DNA from: Bacteriovoracia bacterium
GTDB lineage: Bacteria > Bdellovibrionota > UBA1018 > JBFWNL01
Direction of reading: 5' to 3'
Assembly (NCBI GenBank): GCA_050251055.1
Contig: JBFWNL010000003.1
Span: 32,001-96,000 of the forward strand
DNA length: 64,000 nucleotides
A program made the translations under genes and the position numbers. Within the stretch, counting starts at the first letter, position 1; every line of letters starts with the position of its first letter. The notes beneath the pieces were generated by a model. That model searched no databases. It was not told the origin of the DNA and was given only the letters and a program-made list of their open reading frames with translations. Of this stretch, positions 31,804 to 63,731 are shown piece by piece.

Positions 31804-33018
31804 CTAATCTACGTAGTCGAGCTCTTTTCCGTACGTTTCATCCAGCCCCCGCAGGCCCAGGAAAGCCGCGGCGAGCGCGACGATACCCACGATCAATGCG
31901 CTTTGCAGCAAGGGTTGGGATTGACGCAAAGATTGAAACGCCAAAGTGAGCACGACGACGGATCCACGCACGAAATTGGGCGTGCTGGTGGTAACGGTCG
32001 AACGCAGATTCGTACCGAAGTGCTCCGCGGCGACGGTGACGAATACCGCCCAGTACCCCACCGCGAAACCCAAAGCCGCGCAAAGGCCGTAAAACTCAAA
32101 AGGCGTCCAACCCTTCACGTAGACGTAAACGCACGTTAAAACCGCGGTCAAAGAGAGAAAGCCTAAAACGACACGTTTGCGGGTACGCAGCCACTGGCTC
32201 AAAAATCCGCTCGCGACGTCACCGGCCGCGAGCCCGATGTAAGACCACATCACGGCTAAACTCGCCTGAATCGGACCGGTGACGCCCATCTCGGTGGAAA
32301 GCTCCGGCGAAAAGGTGATCAGAATGCCGATCACGTACCAGACGGGGACGCCGATCAGGATGCACGAGGCGTAACGCTTGAAGTGCCGGAGGGAGCGGAA
32401 GAGCACCGTGAAGTCCCCGCGGCGGACGCCGGCCTGCTTGCAGCCTTCGAACATACCGGACTCGAACATCGACACTCGCATCACGAGCAGCGCCAGGCCC
32501 ATCGCGCCGCCGACAAAGTAAGCCACGCGCCAATCGAAGTAATCGCCCACCCACGCGGCCGCGACCGCGCCGAGGATGCCCACGGAGGCGACGATGGTCG
32601 TGCCGTAACCGCGCTTCTCCTTGGATAGAGTTTCACTGACGAGCGTGATCGCCGCCCCGAGCTCGCCGGCCAGCCCGATGCCCGCCAGCAGCCGTAGCGC
32701 ACCGTACATCGGGACCGATTGCACGAAGCCGTTGGCGATATTCGCCGCCGAATACAGGAAGATCGACCCGAAAAGCACGGACACCCTTCCACGTTTATCG
32801 CCGAAAACTCCCCAGAGAATGCCGCCCAGGAGCATCCCGAACATCTGCATATTCAGGAGAAAAACGCCGGTCCCGAGCAGCTCCTCGGAAGGCACCCCGA
32901 TTGCCTTCAGGCTCGGAATGCGGACGATGGAGAAGAGGATTAGGTCATAAATATCCACGAAATACCCCAGGGCGGAAACCACGACCGTCGTGCTCAGGAT
33001 TTTGTTTGAATTCGTCAT
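31804..33018 (-). CDS. MFS transporter (sugar/aromatic acid type)
   Basis: ALGYFVDIYDL, GDKRGR motif A, GLAGELG, AEHFGTNLR. Confidence 0.9.
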   Translation of the reverse strand: MTNSNKILSTTVVVSALGYFVDIYDLILFSIVRIPSLKAIGVPSEELLGTGVFLLNMQMFGMLLGGILWGVFGDKRGRVSVLFGSIFLYSAANIANGFVQSVPMYGALRLLAGIGLAGELGAAITLVSETLSKEKRGYGTTIVASVGILGAVAAAWVGDYFDWRVAYFVGGAMGLALLVMRVSMFESGMFEGCKQAGVRRGDFTVLFRSLRHFKRYASCILIGVPVWYVIGILITFSPELSTEMGVTGPIQASLAVMWSYIGLAAGDVASGFLSQWLRTRKRVVLGFLSLTAVLTCVYVYVKGWTPFEFYGLCAALGFAVGYWAVFVTVAAEHFGTNLRSTVTTSTPNFVRGSVVVLTLAFQSLRQSQPLLQSALIVGIVALAAAFLGLRGLDETYGKELDYVD

Positions 33019-59216: not shown

Positions 59217-59562
59217 GGACTCGGCTTCCGCTCTCAGCGCTACTCGCGCTTCGGCTGCAGCTCGGGCTCTTTCGCGGCCCGCAAGCGGGCGCCCCGCTCA
59301 GTCCGCCGTTCGAGTCCCGTCTTAAAGTACGAAACGCCACGCGTTTCACTAATTATAAACCCGCCACTTTTTCAAATCAGCCCGAGAGCTTCCGGGCATC
59401 GTTTCCCTCTCTCGAAATATTTTCCTGAGGGGGATACCACGCGTCAGGATGACGCGCGCGCAGCGGCGTGACAGGGCAGGAGCCCGACCCCCTCAGGAAA
59501 ATATTTCGAGAGAGGGAAACGGTGCAGGGAATATTTTAGTGCTGATTTGAAAAAGTGGCGGG
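59217..59562. repeat. Structured element copy 1 (~346 bp)
   Basis: Direct repeat of 60196-60543; perfect 22-bp (59360-59381/59541-59562) and 34-bp (59400-59433/59488-59521) stems. Confidence 0.92.
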
Positions 59563-59643
59563 CCAAATGGGACGAGTATCGAACTTGGTACTGGTCGCAA
59601 GCTGCCTAGTTTGTGGCCAACAGTTGACCGCAAAACGAGGGGT

Positions 59644-59940
59644 TCACTTAGCAGTATCAATAATGCAAAGTCCGGTAGCAATAGCGACTTTGATTCTTAC
59701 GTTCGGAATATTACGTTCTTCTATCGAAAGCTCAGGTGCAAAGTGGGATGCAAGTTTCCCATTTTTTTCACGGCATTTGTCTTCAAGTTTTCCCTTAACT
59801 GCCACATCCATTGATTCAGGTCTAGGTGCCGACCCAACAGATAGCCAATGAGCAGAAATAGGCTCCAGAAGCTCTTCAGCGTGTAAAACTTTTGCTTGTA
59901 GAGTCATGAACAAAACTATCGCGAATGTAGCTAATTTCAT
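59644..59940 (-). CDS. Small secreted hypothetical protein (cassette cargo)
   Basis: GAGG RBS; MKLATFAIVLFMTLQAKVLHA signal peptide; two Cys; AT-rich codons. Confidence 0.65.
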   Translation of the reverse strand: MKLATFAIVLFMTLQAKVLHAEELLEPISAHWLSVGSAPRPESMDVAVKGKLEDKCREKNGKLASHFAPELSIEERNIPNVRIKVAIATGLCIIDTAK

Positions 59941-60062
59941 TTTTTCCTCGCATGCAAATCCATTTAACACCGTGCGTCAAAAAAGTAAATATCTTTTATA
60001 TGCTATGGGCTAGTTCTCTATTTTTGGGCCGTAAGAGCCAAAACGATTGATTATCCGAACGG

Positions 60063-60088
60063 GTGTCTAACGTCAGGGGCGCAGTCTA
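60063..60088. mobile_element. Solo IS3-family-like terminal inverted repeat remnant
   Basis: Minus strand reads TAGACTGCGCCCCTGACGTTAGACAC, resembling IS2/IS150-type ends; no transposase nearby. Confidence 0.4.
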
Positions 60089-60195
60089 ATCCCAATGCAT
60101 TCCGGTTAGAGCTTGGACACAATCAGCCAAGTTACTAGAGTTTTTCTGGATTCGCTTACCACGAACAGAACAAAACTCCACTTTTACCCAAACTA

Positions 60196-60543
60196 GGACT
60201 CGCCTTCCGCTCTCGGCGCTACCCGCGCCTCGGCTGCAGGCCGGGCTCAGGGCCCACCCGCAAGCGGGTACCCGGGCCCTTCCGCCTTTCTTGTCCCGTC
60301 TTCAGGTACGAAACGCTAGCGCGTTTCATTCATTATAAACCCGCCACTTTTTAATAACCGCTCGAGTAATTTCGGACCCAGTTTAACTTTCAGGAAAATA
60401 TATCCCCGAGGGGGATAACACGCGTCAGGAAGACGCGCGCGCAGCGGCGTGAAAGGGCAGGAGCCCGACCCCCTCGGGGATATATTTTCCTGAAAGTTAA
60501 ACTGGGTTGGGAAAACTTGGTGCGGTTATTAAAAAGTGGCGGG
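60196..60543. repeat. Structured element copy 2 (~348 bp), overlapping the tRNA 3' end
   Basis: Perfect 22-bp (60340-60361/60522-60543) and 39-bp (60376-60414/60469-60507) stems; central 54 nt differ from copy 1 at 3 positions. Confidence 0.92.
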
Positions 60544-60613
60544 AGAGACGGGACTCGAACCCGCGACCTTCGCCGTGACAGGGCGACGTTGTAACCAACT
60601 CAACTACTCCCCC
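60537..60613 (-). tRNA. tRNA-Asp (GUC)
   Basis: GGGGGAGTAGTTGAGTTGGTTACAACGTCGCCCTGTCACGGCGAAGGTCGCGGGTTCGAGTCCCGTCTCTCCCGCCA; 77 nt, cloverleaf, encoded CCA. Confidence 0.97.
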
Positions 60614-60875: not shown

Positions 60876-62237
60876 ATGCGCGCTTGGCGAATTCTCGCGG
60901 CGACTTTTTGCACGCTCACGATCCATCTGTCCGCTTACCCGGCCTACGGGAACCCACCCATCGACTTTTCGAATCGAGCCGCGGTGGCGCAATGGCTGGA
61001 CCTGGGTATCGAACAAGGACAGTATCGCGGCGTCGGCTCCACGCTTGAGAATTCAGTCGCGATCGCGGTCCACCAAAAAATCCTATCCGGAGAATCGCCT
61101 TGGAAAGTGGAGGCCGTCGTGAACTACCATCCCATCACGGGCGAAGCCTGGCCGGTGACGGTAAAGGACGTACAAATCTCCCAGTCGCCAGAAACGTTCC
61201 AGAAGGTGGCGGTCAGCGCGACGCTTTTCCTGAGCAAAAAAAGTGACCCCAAAGCACGCCTGGTCGCCGGCGTGAGCGCCGAACGATTTAGCGTCCAGTA
61301 CAATAGCGGCATCGAGGGGCGCAAGGCCGACGCGATCGAGCTCGAAAAATACGTACAGGAAGAAATCACCACGCGATCTCTCTACCGCCGCCGCGCGGTC
61401 GAAATGAAGGAAACCGGCACCATCGGCTTCGTGCCCGGGATCCGCAGTTACAACTACAATTGGGATTCCATTATTCTAGAAAGTGGGCTGAAGCAAAAGC
61501 TCCGCTCCACCGTGGAAGATTTCATTAACCATTACGACTACGCCCGCTGGAAGGAACTGGGCCTGCCCATGAACCGAGGCATCCTGCTCGACGGCCCGCC
61601 CGGCACGGGCAAGAGCATGGTCGCGAAAGTCATCCTCTCGAACGTCGTACAGAAGGTGTACAAAAAGGAAGTCACCTATATTTACGTGGTCGCCCGGCAC
61701 ATCATCAATAAGGAAGCCGTGAAGAACATCTTCGCGGCGGCCCGCCTGCTGAATCCAGCCGTAGTTTTTATCGAGGACATCGACCTCATCGCCGGCACCG
61801 ACCGCAAGGACCGCATGGACGTAAAGAACGAGCTCATGCAGCAGTTAAGCGGCATCCAGGAACTCAACGGCGTGCTCACGATCGGCACCACCAACGTCGG
61901 CGCGCGCATCGACGACGCGCTTAAGCGGTCGAAACGCCTAGGTTTTCAATTCACGATCGGCGCGCCCGCCATGGCCGAGCGCGTGGCCTTGTTCACGGTA
62001 TTCACGAACAAGCTCGCGCACGAAGACTTGGATTTCCGGGCCTACGGCGATCAAAGCGAAGGCATGACCGGGGCGGACATCCAGGAGCTGATCGACGTAG
62101 CCACCGAACGGGCCATGCGTCAGGGATCTTTTAAGGATCCCGGCCAAGGAGATGGCAAGCGTCGCGTATTACTGAAGGACGAGCACCTGCGGTACGCATT
62201 CGCGCTCCGTAAAACCACGCGCATTCCTGGAAAGTAA
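60876..62237 (+). CDS. AAA+ ATPase (classic clade) with signal-peptide-like N-terminus
   Basis: GPPGTGKS Walker A, VVFIEDID Walker B, TTN..IDDALKRSKRL second region of homology. Confidence 0.88.
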   Translation: MRAWRILAATFCTLTIHLSAYPAYGNPPIDFSNRAAVAQWLDLGIEQGQYRGVGSTLENSVAIAVHQKILSGESPWKVEAVVNYHPITGEAWPVTVKDVQISQSPETFQKVAVSATLFLSKKSDPKARLVAGVSAERFSVQYNSGIEGRKADAIELEKYVQEEITTRSLYRRRAVEMKETGTIGFVPGIRSYNYNWDSIILESGLKQKLRSTVEDFINHYDYARWKELGLPMNRGILLDGPPGTGKSMVAKVILSNVVQKVYKKEVTYIYVVARHIINKEAVKNIFAAARLLNPAVVFIEDIDLIAGTDRKDRMDVKNELMQQLSGIQELNGVLTIGTTNVGARIDDALKRSKRLGFQFTIGAPAMAERVALFTVFTNKLAHEDLDFRAYGDQSEGMTGADIQELIDVATERAMRQGSFKDPGQGDGKRRVLLKDEHLRYAFALRKTTRIPGK

Positions 62238-62249
62238 GGGGCAAAGCAT

Positions 62250-63731
62250 ATGAAAAAGTATTTGATGACCATCCTACTCACGTGCCTAGCCGTCACCTTC
62301 ACCTCCACGGCCACCGAAGATGACCCACTCTTCCGCCAGCTTTCGCCGGCGCTGAAGTATTGGCTCCAGGAAAACCCGCTCATCCCCACCGAGATGACGC
62401 TGGATATGTCCTTCCAAAACTATAAGCAGCTGCATGCCTTCGCGCTCGACCGCATCCTCAGCCGCGACGGTTCCGATTGGAAGATCTACAAGGTGAAAAA
62501 CTACGATTCCATGGGGAACGAGTCCCCCGTGGGTTACGCCGAGCTGCCCGTGAATTCCAAAGGCGAAAACCGCGAGATCCTAACGGACGGCTACTACTTC
62601 GCCTATAAGGGCGATCCGAAGACCGGCCCCCGGATCGTGGTGCAACCCACGCAGCGTTACGAATACTACGTTTCGGACCAATACTTCATGATGAAGGACG
62701 CGGTCGAGATTTACTATGCCAAGCGATGGGAAACCGAGGCCCGCGAGTTCAAGGCGCTCCTGGCCCGCGAGCTGAACGAGCGCAATCTCTTCCGCAATTC
62801 CGTGCTGGAGTTCACCACGAGCGACGCCAGCCCGAACTTCAAATCGTTCGCGCTCACTTTCATGGATCACGTGGAGGACATGAAGATCGATTGGAAAGAC
62901 CTCATACTGCCCAAAGACTTCCACCAGATGCTGTACGAGAACACCGAGGGTTTTCTTCAGCTCAACGCTCAATACCGGGAGCACGGCCTGAAGCAGAAAA
63001 AAGGCCTGCTGCTGTACGGTCCTCCGGGCAACGGCAAGAGCCTGGTCGCGCAGACGCTGATCTCGTCGATGTACCAAGGCAAGCTCAAGGACCAAGTAAC
63101 GATGATCGTGGTCACCGCGCGGCATCTTTCGTTCCGCCACGCCGTCAAGGCGCTCTTTGAAGAAGCCGCTCGCCTAGCTCCTTGCGTGATCTTCATGGAG
63201 GACATCGATCTATTGGGTATCAAATCGCGGGATGGCCAGGCAGATAACTCCGCCAAGCAAGCCGAAGTGCTCAACGAGTTCTTGAACGCGATGGATGGCG
63301 TGGTCGACACGAGTGGCCTGCTCATGATCGGCACTACCAACAAAGTCGACGCCATGGATAGCGCGTTGACCCGTTCGGCCCGCTTGGGCATGCACCTCTA
63401 CTTCGAAAACCCCCGCTACCCGGAGCGCAAGGAGTTTTTCCTACGCCTGGGCACGAAGAAAGCCGTGTGGGCGGAGGATGTGACCGCCGAATGGCTGGCG
63501 GGTGAAACCGAAAACCTCGGCGGCGCCGATATCGTGGAGATTATCTCCATCGCCAAGCAAAACGCGTTGCTTGCGGGCTCCTACGCGGGCGAGAAGCTCC
63601 TGCTCACGAAGGCGTTCTTCGCCGATGCGATCGCGCAGATTCGCCGGGATCACGGCCGCCGGGACGATGACCGCGAAGATCTGCTTCCCGAAGCGCTCCG
63701 CAACCTCCACACCCTGGAGGCGACCTTCTAA
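62250..63731 (+). CDS. AAA+ ATPase (classic clade) with signal-peptide-like N-terminus
   Basis: GPPGNGKS, VIFMEDID, TTN..MDSALTRSARL. Confidence 0.88.
   Translation: MKKYLMTILLTCLAVTFTSTATEDDPLFRQLSPALKYWLQENPLIPTEMTLDMSFQNYKQLHAFALDRILSRDGSDWKIYKVKNYDSMGNESPVGYAELPVNSKGENREILTDGYYFAYKGDPKTGPRIVVQPTQRYEYYVSDQYFMMKDAVEIYYAKRWETEAREFKALLARELNERNLFRNSVLEFTTSDASPNFKSFALTFMDHVEDMKIDWKDLILPKDFHQMLYENTEGFLQLNAQYREHGLKQKKGLLLYGPPGNGKSLVAQTLISSMYQGKLKDQVTMIVVTARHLSFRHAVKALFEEAARLAPCVIFMEDIDLLGIKSRDGQADNSAKQAEVLNEFLNAMDGVVDTSGLLMIGTTNKVDAMDSALTRSARLGMHLYFENPRYPERKEFFLRLGTKKAVWAEDVTAEWLAGETENLGGADIVEIISIAKQNALLAGSYAGEKLLLTKAFFADAIAQIRRDHGRRDDDREDLLPEALRNLHTLEATF

Follow-up and report, generated by a model that had tools for sequence, protein, structure and literature searches.

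Behind the transfer RNA (tRNA) gene for aspartate in contig JBFWNL010000003.1 of a Bacteriovoracia bacterium (assembly GCA_050251055.1), an inverted and interrupted copy of the gene's own 3' end stands in the DNA twice, and the question raised by this locus is what such a mirror copy is and how it came to be there. tRNA genes are classic landing sites of islands and prophages, and the attachment (att) sites found at them are usually viewed as double-stranded blocks read by an integrase. We analyzed the stretch of 64,000 nucleotides (nt) that contains the gene (positions 32,001 to 96,000 of the contig, hereafter the window) together with related genomes, and found that the inverted copy belongs to a module of ~140 nt with covarying helices, whose architecture recurs behind many kinds of tRNA genes, whose arms follow the identity of the local tRNA, and which is accompanied by direct repeats, tandem arrays, and differences in presence between congeners. 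The explanation to which we give about an even chance is that these modules mark miniature, integrase-less elements integrated at tRNA and transfer-messenger RNA (tmRNA) genes, with the att block presented as a fold-back duplex. The parts of the locus, in positions of the window, are as follows.

59217..59223, plus strand: arm a of copy 1 (GGACTCG), complementary to the T-loop and T-stem of the tRNA; pairs with arm b, closing stem-loop 1
59224..59307, plus strand: core of copy 1, a conserved structured domain between direct CTTCCGC motifs
59308..59322, plus strand: arm b of copy 1 (GTTCGAGTCCCGTCT), tRNA-sense T-loop, 3' strand of the T-stem, and first 2 acceptor nt
59323..59359, plus strand: stem-loop 2 and A/T-rich spacer of copy 1, 37 nt, with the hairpin GAAACG..CGTTTC; replaces acceptor nt 3-4
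59360..59366, plus strand: arm c of copy 1 (CCCGCCA), tRNA-sense last acceptor nt, discriminator, and CCA; base of the long hairpin
59360..59562, no strand assigned: long hairpin 3 of copy 1, with arms 59360-59381/59541-59562 (100% complementary) and 59390-59433/59488-59531 (93%)
59563..59584, minus strand: degenerate tRNA-Asp-like 3' segment (CCAAATGGGACGAGTATCGAAC), compared by eye with 60544-60562
59644..59970, minus strand: open frame of 108 amino acids (aa), possible cargo, inside a 981-base-pair (bp) unit
60196..60202, plus strand: arm a of copy 2 (GGACTCG)
60203..60289, plus strand: core of copy 2
60290..60301, plus strand: arm b of copy 2 (CTTGTCCCGTCT), sharing 9 identical nt with the tRNA but altered at T-loop positions 57-58
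60302..60339, plus strand: counterpart in copy 2 of stem-loop 2 and its spacer, again an insert of ~37 nt
60340..60543, no strand assigned: arm c (CCCGCCA, 60340-60346) and long hairpin 3 of copy 2
60537..60613, minus strand: tRNA-Asp(GTC), 69 bits; the arms copy its last ~21 nt, the target or att block

Copy 1 (59217-59562) and copy 2 (60196-60543) lie ~980 nt apart and are 74 to 90% alike when compared piecewise, and copy 2 abuts tRNA-Asp. A sequence-only reading of this region had described in copy 1 an exact 15-nt inverted copy of tRNA-Asp positions 60546-60560 at 59308-59322, followed by a 37-nt insert with a hairpin of its own (59323-59359) and then by CCCGCCA (59360-59366), and all of this is borne out by the sequence, as is the counterpart CTTGTCCCGTCT in the same register of copy 2. 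CCCGCCA at 59360-59366 is itself the complement of the last 7 nt of tRNA-Asp (60537-60543). The 15-mer GTTCGAGTCCCGTCT occurs exactly at two places only in the window, arm b and tRNA-Asp; at up to two mismatches there are 4 window matches, against 0.23 expected from 100 shuffles, the extra near-matches (27581 and 32453) lying in coding sequence and appearing chance-like. Long hairpin 3 of copy 1 has a 54-nt tip and ends on the right with TGGCGGG (59556-59562); in copy 2 the hairpin arms (60340-60414 and 60469-60543, 75 nt, 88% complementary) are longer, and the right one extends into the last 7 nt of tRNA-Asp. The segment that follows copy 1 (59563-59584) is tRNA-like with a 5-nt insertion and two transitions, and the interval 59563-60543 looks like a unit of ~981 bp inserted at TGGCGGG between copy 1 and tRNA-Asp. 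The same insertion layout (distal remnant, cargo, module, tRNA) recurs in another genus, at a locus of genome G031. The possible cargo frame at 59644-59970 has a hydrophobic N-terminus and matched no Pfam family.

Each window copy, folded as one strand, is far more stable than its shuffles (z = -12 to -17). In the predicted minimum-energy structure of copy 2, arm b and CCCGCCA pair with the tRNA gene's 3' end and the 37-nt hairpin bulges out, a fold across the junction that the earlier reading had anticipated and that is predicted for both DNA strands alike (-130.6 and -130.2 kcal/mol, z ~ -17), with the tRNA end paired to arms b and c and the long hairpin at the apex. In the fold of copy 1, 59308-59322 stays unpaired with its present right neighbor. 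It had also been proposed that each copy matches its predicted original neighbor, for copy 2 the one in an excised circle. For copy 1 the tandem layout fits this: its arm b matches tRNA-Asp at 15 of 15 positions and the present neighbor only across the 5-nt insertion. For copy 2 the pairing does not discriminate, as the arm pairs about equally well with both candidate partners (10 of 12 Watson-Crick pairs with the real tRNA-Asp; 9 Watson-Crick and 2 G-T pairs with one mismatch against 59565-59576, both counted by hand), so that the excised-circle neighbor is not singled out.

The left 160 nt of the element recur elsewhere in the source genome, where a profile built from 7 copies matched 11 places at E <= 6e-6 (nhmmer). 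Ten of these lie within 400 nt of the 3' ends of nine different tRNA genes (His, Asp, Arg-acg twice, Gln-ttg, Val-tac, Leu-cag, Ala-cgc, Leu-tag, and Lys-ctt), all ten tail-to-tail with the tRNA, and the 11th is copy 1 of the window, which sits behind copy 2; 9 of the genome's 45 tRNA genes thus carry the module. With a covariance model the module was found in 21 genomes, out of 116 examined from the order and 127 from the class; among these 127 it was absent from the other families of the class, the family of the source genome being represented by this genome only. A pattern scan of a wider genome collection returned 119 stretches, of which two, from a Bacteriovoracaceae and a Bdellovibrionales assembly, pass the hidden Markov model of the module; the others are chance matches in G+C-rich genomes. 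Convergent tRNA or tmRNA genes within 600 nt accompany 52 of 77 copies (27 of 40 and 25 of 37) and belong to 26 kinds, tmRNA included, and the remaining copies are cut by contig ends, are degenerate, or run into a tRNA-end fragment followed by inserted foreign DNA. A long-pattern search of metagenomes gave eight contigs, seven with a convergent tRNA, adding Glu, Leu-gag, and Asn to the hosts, and all with arms that match their own tRNA.

Read antisense to the tRNA, the module is always ordered as arm a, a core of ~85 nt, arm b, stem-loop 2, arm c, and a hairpin whose far arm enters the real tRNA end. Arm a is complementary to the T-loop and T-stem of the tRNA and in many copies to all of its last 21 nt; the core is bounded by direct CTTCCGC motifs, arm b holds the tRNA-sense T-loop, 3' strand of the T-stem, and two acceptor nt, and arm c supplies the tRNA-sense last acceptor nt, discriminator, and CCA. 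The interruption of the inverted copy always takes the place of acceptor nt 3-4. The sequence-only reading had suggested that the arms might compete with folding of the pre-tRNA; many copies have a terminator-like hairpin between the tRNA and the arms. The elements as a whole measure ~160 to 350 bp, and more where they carry cargo.

Two departures from this plan were observed. Behind tRNA-Leu-tag in the source genome (C8:42465-42560) lies a coreless copy in which a single CCTTCCGCC connects arms a and b, as would result from loss of the core between its two direct CTTCCGC motifs or from a state before its insertion there. In about one-third of copies, T-loop nt 57-58 of the inverted copy are changed from GA to TC, TT, or GC (window 60290-60301, L137, L149, L151, L155, L156, L153, and L154); in these copies the T-stem part remains exact, which gives the a/b helix a bubble of 2 nt close to its core end.

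How closely the arms track the adjacent gene was measured at 52 tRNA- or tmRNA-adjacent loci by comparing exact runs between each arm and its own tRNA with those for non-cognate pairs. Arm b matches its own tRNA over at least 7 nt in 45 of the 52 (5.1% of non-cognate pairs), the outcome that the sequence-only reading required of homologs at other tRNA genes, its refuting result having failed to appear; arm a does so in 43 (13.6%), with at least 19 nt in 26 of the 52, and arm c in 26 (7.7%), frequently with one mismatch. Since own-tRNA matches lie far above the non-cognate level, the arms follow tRNA identity. One candidate explanation, in which the flank at the insertion site serves as template for the arms, was dropped as unnecessary: the stems of the long hairpins are the element's own, and tandem copies explain the long repeats.

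The helices of the module covary. Across 40 aligned copies, 92.8% of cells hold standard pairs (72.1% in shuffles and 36 to 47% with slid partners), 39 of 43 pairs have changed on both sides, and the covariation score is 0.486 versus 0.150, all on an alignment that was fitted to the model's structure and is thus biased towards it, which tells against resting the fold-back explanation on these counts; an independent RNAalifold run on 9 copies recovered 20 of 43 compensated pairs. Helix 1, between arms a and b, has 6 of 7 pairs changed on both sides, and helix 8, in stem-loop 2, is 99% paired with 5 of 5 changed. In 23 of 39 copies the loop of stem-loop 2 has the form C(GNA)G or C(GNNA)G, with GCGAAGC, known as an unusually stable DNA mini-hairpin, occurring eight times.

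Strong helix covariation and conserved loop sequences are also what would be expected if the module were a structured small RNA gene, or the 5' leader of a cargo gene, with arms that act at the RNA level (pairing with the tRNA 3' end, its 5' half, or the pre-tRNA trailer, or mimicking the tRNA end) and a location beside tRNA genes that reflects this function. We regard this as rather unlikely. In its favor, many copies are followed by a terminator-like hairpin with A- and T-runs resembling that of a small RNA, and in three cases (window 59644-59970, the His island, and the toxin-antitoxin cargo of genus g14) the cargo is tRNA-sense and downstream of the module. Among 1605 helix cells, 78 are G-U and 20 A-C, and 50 of the G-U cells fall at two conserved helix-end positions; outside these positions the counts are 28 G-U/U-G and 19 A-C/C-A, the helices being nearly all Watson-Crick, and this lack of strand asymmetry, which is not typical of RNAs, fits a constraint at the DNA level better. 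The two indicators of strand contradict each other: the two conserved G-U pairs favor the strand antisense to the tRNA, whereas the loops, of GNRA or GNRNA type with G...A in the helix-4 loop of 31 of 38 copies, favor the tRNA-sense strand, as do the stem-loop 2 loops described above. Each indicator would suit an RNA if taken singly; together they speak against the small RNA, and they count also against the fold-back explanation, as does the strong sequence conservation of the core loops, which would fit an RNA or a protein-binding site too. The sequence upstream of the module varies between copies and no conserved promoter was found, the promoter and terminator scan of the window region standing at chance level (one promoter-like site versus 1.1 expected). 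Rfam searches of the window region and five loci gave nothing above threshold except tRNAs; the microRNA-like matches are merely long hairpins. A small RNA also leaves unexplained the direct repeats of 19 to 21 nt, the tandem arrays, and the gains and losses between congeners.

These last features are those expected of integration. In half of the copies the tRNA end is repeated directly at the flank, over 19 to 21 nt from T-loop to CCA; this repeat begins at the identical T-loop position in different tRNAs and sometimes extends past the CCA. Across copies the flanking repeat ranges from 7 to >50 nt, and in several it is only 7 to 11 nt. Tandem arrays of the form Z-core-Z stand at Arg-acg, Gln-ttg, L151, and L158. 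At tRNA-His in the source genome, the only tRNA for which the search for a distal repeat succeeded, a decayed tRNA end lies 5.2 kb away, and the interval holds the module together with an AAA_15 ATPase gene. In G023 an island of 13.2 kb lies between the module and tRNA-Pro(tgg), the gene whose end is copied in its arms, and copies without an adjacent tRNA end in the hairpin and 7 to 22 nt of a tRNA end before foreign DNA begins. Congeners differ as well. At tRNA-Gln(ctg) in genus g14, G032 has the full module, G033 has none, and G031 combines an orthologous copy, its core decayed, with a distal remnant and toxin-antitoxin-like cargo; in genus g48 the Gly(ccc) module is present in G088 and absent from G089, and the Arg(tct) module is present in G089 and absent from G088. 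In G088 a displaced copy of the tRNA end is followed by an apparent native terminator. No clean empty site was found between congeners at Gly(ccc), Arg(tct), or Gln(ctg), where the flanks are not alignable. Beside the g14 module, some 0.2 to 1.0 kb to its left at L176 (G031), a RelE/HigB-like gene and a helix-turn-helix antitoxin-like gene were recognized by eye as a pair, which is also present in G032.

Such differences bear on the possibility that the module is a host accessory of tRNA genes, namely a bidirectional terminator, insulator, or 3'-processing signal spread by gene conversion, whose arms merely lengthen a terminator stem into the tRNA end. We consider this improbable. In many copies the tRNA-proximal hairpin does have the look of an intrinsic terminator acting in both directions, related long hairpins sharing a conserved tip are likewise found behind tRNAs that have no module, and the neighbors are housekeeping genes; yet only 9 of the 45 tRNA genes of the source genome and 21 of the 127 genomes carry the module, one congener may have it and another lack it at a given tRNA, tRNA-end direct repeats and displaced native terminators flank the copies, and pairing of the arms with the acceptor and T stems would, if they were transcribed, be harmful to pre-tRNA folding.

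The decay visible at some of these loci (a core lost at Leu(tag) and decayed in G031, and distal copies that are truncated) could also mean that the modules are inert scars of decayed tRNA islands and that the inverted copy is an inherited accident such as an old inversion or a template switch; remnants that can be mobilized in cis, and their accretion at tRNA genes, are well known (from the relevant part of PMC5704250). Compensatory changes that maintain 39 of 43 pairs, arms re-matched to at least 26 different tRNA or tmRNA genes, and an interruption at a constant tRNA position in all copies are not expected of scars, and we judge this explanation very unlikely.

If the elements moved, the enzyme that moved them is to be sought outside them. 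No element contains an integrase, and among 76 flanking frames searched against Pfam a phage-type integrase was found only at L147, L160, and L168, where a tyrosine integrase lies near a tRNA-less junction; matching integrase C-termini were recognized by eye at L211 and L218. The tRNA-adjacent copies have housekeeping genes as neighbors and no integrase of their own, so the elements are non-autonomous. The source genome, which is 93.5% complete, encodes eight tyrosine recombinases, with candidate non-Xer members at C5:251331-252470, C7:201941-202909, C9:32643-33422, and C7:18331-19080, and gave no match to the IS110 DEDD transposase (PF01548), the Y1 (HUH) transposase (PF01797), or reverse transcriptase (PF00078).

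The integrases at L147, L211, and L218 (also L168 and L160) are of one tyrosine integrase family, ~384 aa long with the C-terminus WKxLKTMQxYxRLAG, and they lie ~100 nt from the TGGYGGA/TTCG junction and point to it, beside tRNA-less modules. Three to four homologs of this integrase, at 23 to 38% identity, are present in the source genome, and two of them adjoin tRNA-Ser(cga) and tRNA-Glu.

Several further results weigh against the explanation as a mobile element with a fold-back att site. In both window copies arm a is only 7 nt long and does not amount to a full direct repeat of the tRNA's end, and for Asp, Val, Leu, and Ala a search out to 25 kb gave no distal repeat. Neither an excised circle nor an empty site or alternative joint was found in the contigs of three DNA runs, which break at repeats. 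No integrase is consistently linked to the tRNA-adjacent copies among the flanking frames. In viral contigs five pattern matches were obtained, none of which passes the covariance model; the phage collection gave no match, and in the plasmid collection the two matches obtained, each 27 nt long and attributable to chance, fall in a flagellar gene. Finally, the nearest neighbor of a core was found in the same genome in 13 of 35 cases and at the same tRNA in another genome in none of 35, and since cores are alike by genome and not by tRNA, movement with replacement of the arms, or gene conversion of the core only, is needed in addition.

Re-templating of the arms in each cycle would account for both arms that follow the tRNA and cores that are alike within a genome, and it is what a tRNA-primed retroelement would do, with arms c and b, on the tRNA-sense strand, as a split primer-binding site for the last 21 nt of the tRNA. 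The complement of the tRNA end starts with TGG, as primer-binding sites do, and stops in the T-loop. Against this, the source genome has 10 to 11 copies and no reverse transcriptase, a reverse transcriptase stands beside only 1 of 35 scanned loci and there inside an island (Fic genes are found at others), and some direct repeats pass the CCA into the gene flank, which a mature tRNA could not template; we regard such an origin as extremely improbable.

The explanation we favor, of miniature tRNA-integrated elements whose att block folds back, can be worded as a sequence of steps. The element would enter by site-specific recombination at the block between T-loop and 3' end, with a tyrosine integrase probably supplied in trans, by analogy with the remnants of tRNA islands that can be mobilized in cis, and its own copy of the last ~21 nt of the tRNA would now complete the tRNA gene. 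The inverted copy (arms b and c) would let one DNA strand fold back on itself, so that the att block becomes a duplex with stem-loop 2 predicted to bulge out and the core or the long hairpin at the apex; this would be a recombination site built from a single strand, perhaps in the manner of the attC sites of integrons or the attP site of CTX phage.

A different use of the same parts is conceivable, in which arms b and c are nucleic acid recognition segments of a folded strand or a transcript that present, or pair with, the end of the tRNA gene, so that one core could be retargeted to more than 25 tRNA or tmRNA genes by rewriting ~21 nt. Such attC-like or guide-like programmable integration, by a tyrosine recombinase or another enzyme, we hold to be doubtful.

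Comparison with known systems shows what is shared and what is not. Cis-mobilizable elements (CIMEs), whose definition and model of accretion at tRNA genes are set out in the consulted part of PMC5704250, are one of the nearest known systems. Like tRNA islands and CIMEs, the elements described here lie at the 3' end of tRNA or tmRNA genes, have, in half of the copies, tRNA-end direct repeats that begin in the T-loop, and would supply a new gene end; they too form tandem arrays in which older copies are displaced outward, and later islands are found at the same tRNA. CIMEs are random decay products, whereas every copy here keeps a conserved, covarying module of ~140 nt, the att block is present as an inverted and interrupted copy re-matched to at least 26 targets, and elements are as small as ~160 bp. 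Williams is said to have defined, in 2002, a T-loop class of tRNA integration sites. We know of no smaller kind of tRNA-integrated element than these, at ~160 to 350 bp.

In integrons, a tyrosine recombinase joins the folded single strand of attC to a double-stranded site (PMC4792948). The module is like attC if its site is likewise set by the predicted fold of one strand, with two paired boxes, an unpaired center, and a variable apex. The arms copy a tRNA end and not the R and L boxes of attC, the apex here contains a conserved structured core, and no integron integrase or cassette array was encountered, although no search was aimed at them. CTX phage integrates through an attP site made of two inverted copies of the host target; as single-stranded DNA these fold into a hairpin that mimics the double-stranded target, and a single strand exchange is then completed by replication (PMC3442271 and PMC3089051). 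Its target is dif and its enzymes are XerCD, unlike the present case, in which the target is the end of a tRNA gene, filamentous-phage genes are lacking, and the elements are far smaller. The insertion sequence (IS) families IS110, with its bridge RNA, and IS200/IS605, with its guides, share with the module short target-complementary segments in a structured end, split by a stem. Unlike in those families, no DEDD or Y1 transposase is found in the source genome, the target copies are 7 to 21 nt long and occur in both orientations, and integration leaves a tRNA-end direct repeat. The missing Y1 transposase sets the module apart from REP/RAYT hairpin elements as well.

An identity as a miniature inverted-repeat transposable element was rejected: conserved inverted repeats are lacking at the ends, arm sequence changes from locus to locus, and the flanking repeat varies from 7 to >50 nt. 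In full-text literature searches we found no published description of tRNA-att hairpins or of this module, and the consulted part of the Bacteriovorax marinus genome paper mentions no such element.

What distinguishes the family is its small size, its conserved covarying fold, and an inverted, split att copy held in register at 26 or more targets. If the fold is the active form, recombination sites built from a single strand would extend beyond integrons and Xer-exploiting phages to tRNA genes, and the module would offer a compact, retargetable site for testing whether a recombinase reads structure or sequence. The mirror copy points to a way, so far undescribed, for tiny mobile elements to present or recognize their landing site. 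Even on a more ordinary reading, the module is a new structured nucleic acid motif of Bacteriovoracia, it accounts for the fragments of tRNA ends and the long palindromes found behind tRNA genes in the genomes of these predatory bacteria, and it flags a source of assembly breaks at such positions.

The source genome also contains a second family of long, nearly perfect hairpins with stems unique to each locus and a conserved tip of ~60 nt, at C1:359187, C2:198395, C2:173654, C7:136538, and C13:21116 and also behind ~17 tRNA genes. The tip contains GCCCATGGATGGGC or GCGCATGGAAGCGC, with a compensated pair, and an A-run or T-run lies ~16 bp from it; with up to 3 mismatches allowed, the tip motif is matched 28 times in the genome, ~17 times behind tRNAs, where the hairpins are always antisense to the tRNA and the base of the stem includes the tRNA's last nucleotides. 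The Asp copies of the window have a different tip, GGGCAGGAGCCCG, which they have in common with L147. The long-hairpin tip shares the hairpin loop AUGGAU or AUGGAA with the TwoAYGGAY family (RF01731), but membership was rejected: one tip scored 28.5 bits against a gathering threshold of 43 (E = 0.69), and the match concerns the tip and not the module.

Just upstream of tRNA-Asp in the window, at 60876-62237 and 62250-63731, lie two adjacent, paralogous AAA+ ATPase genes of 453 and 493 aa, which have signal-peptide-like N-termini and are unrelated to the element.

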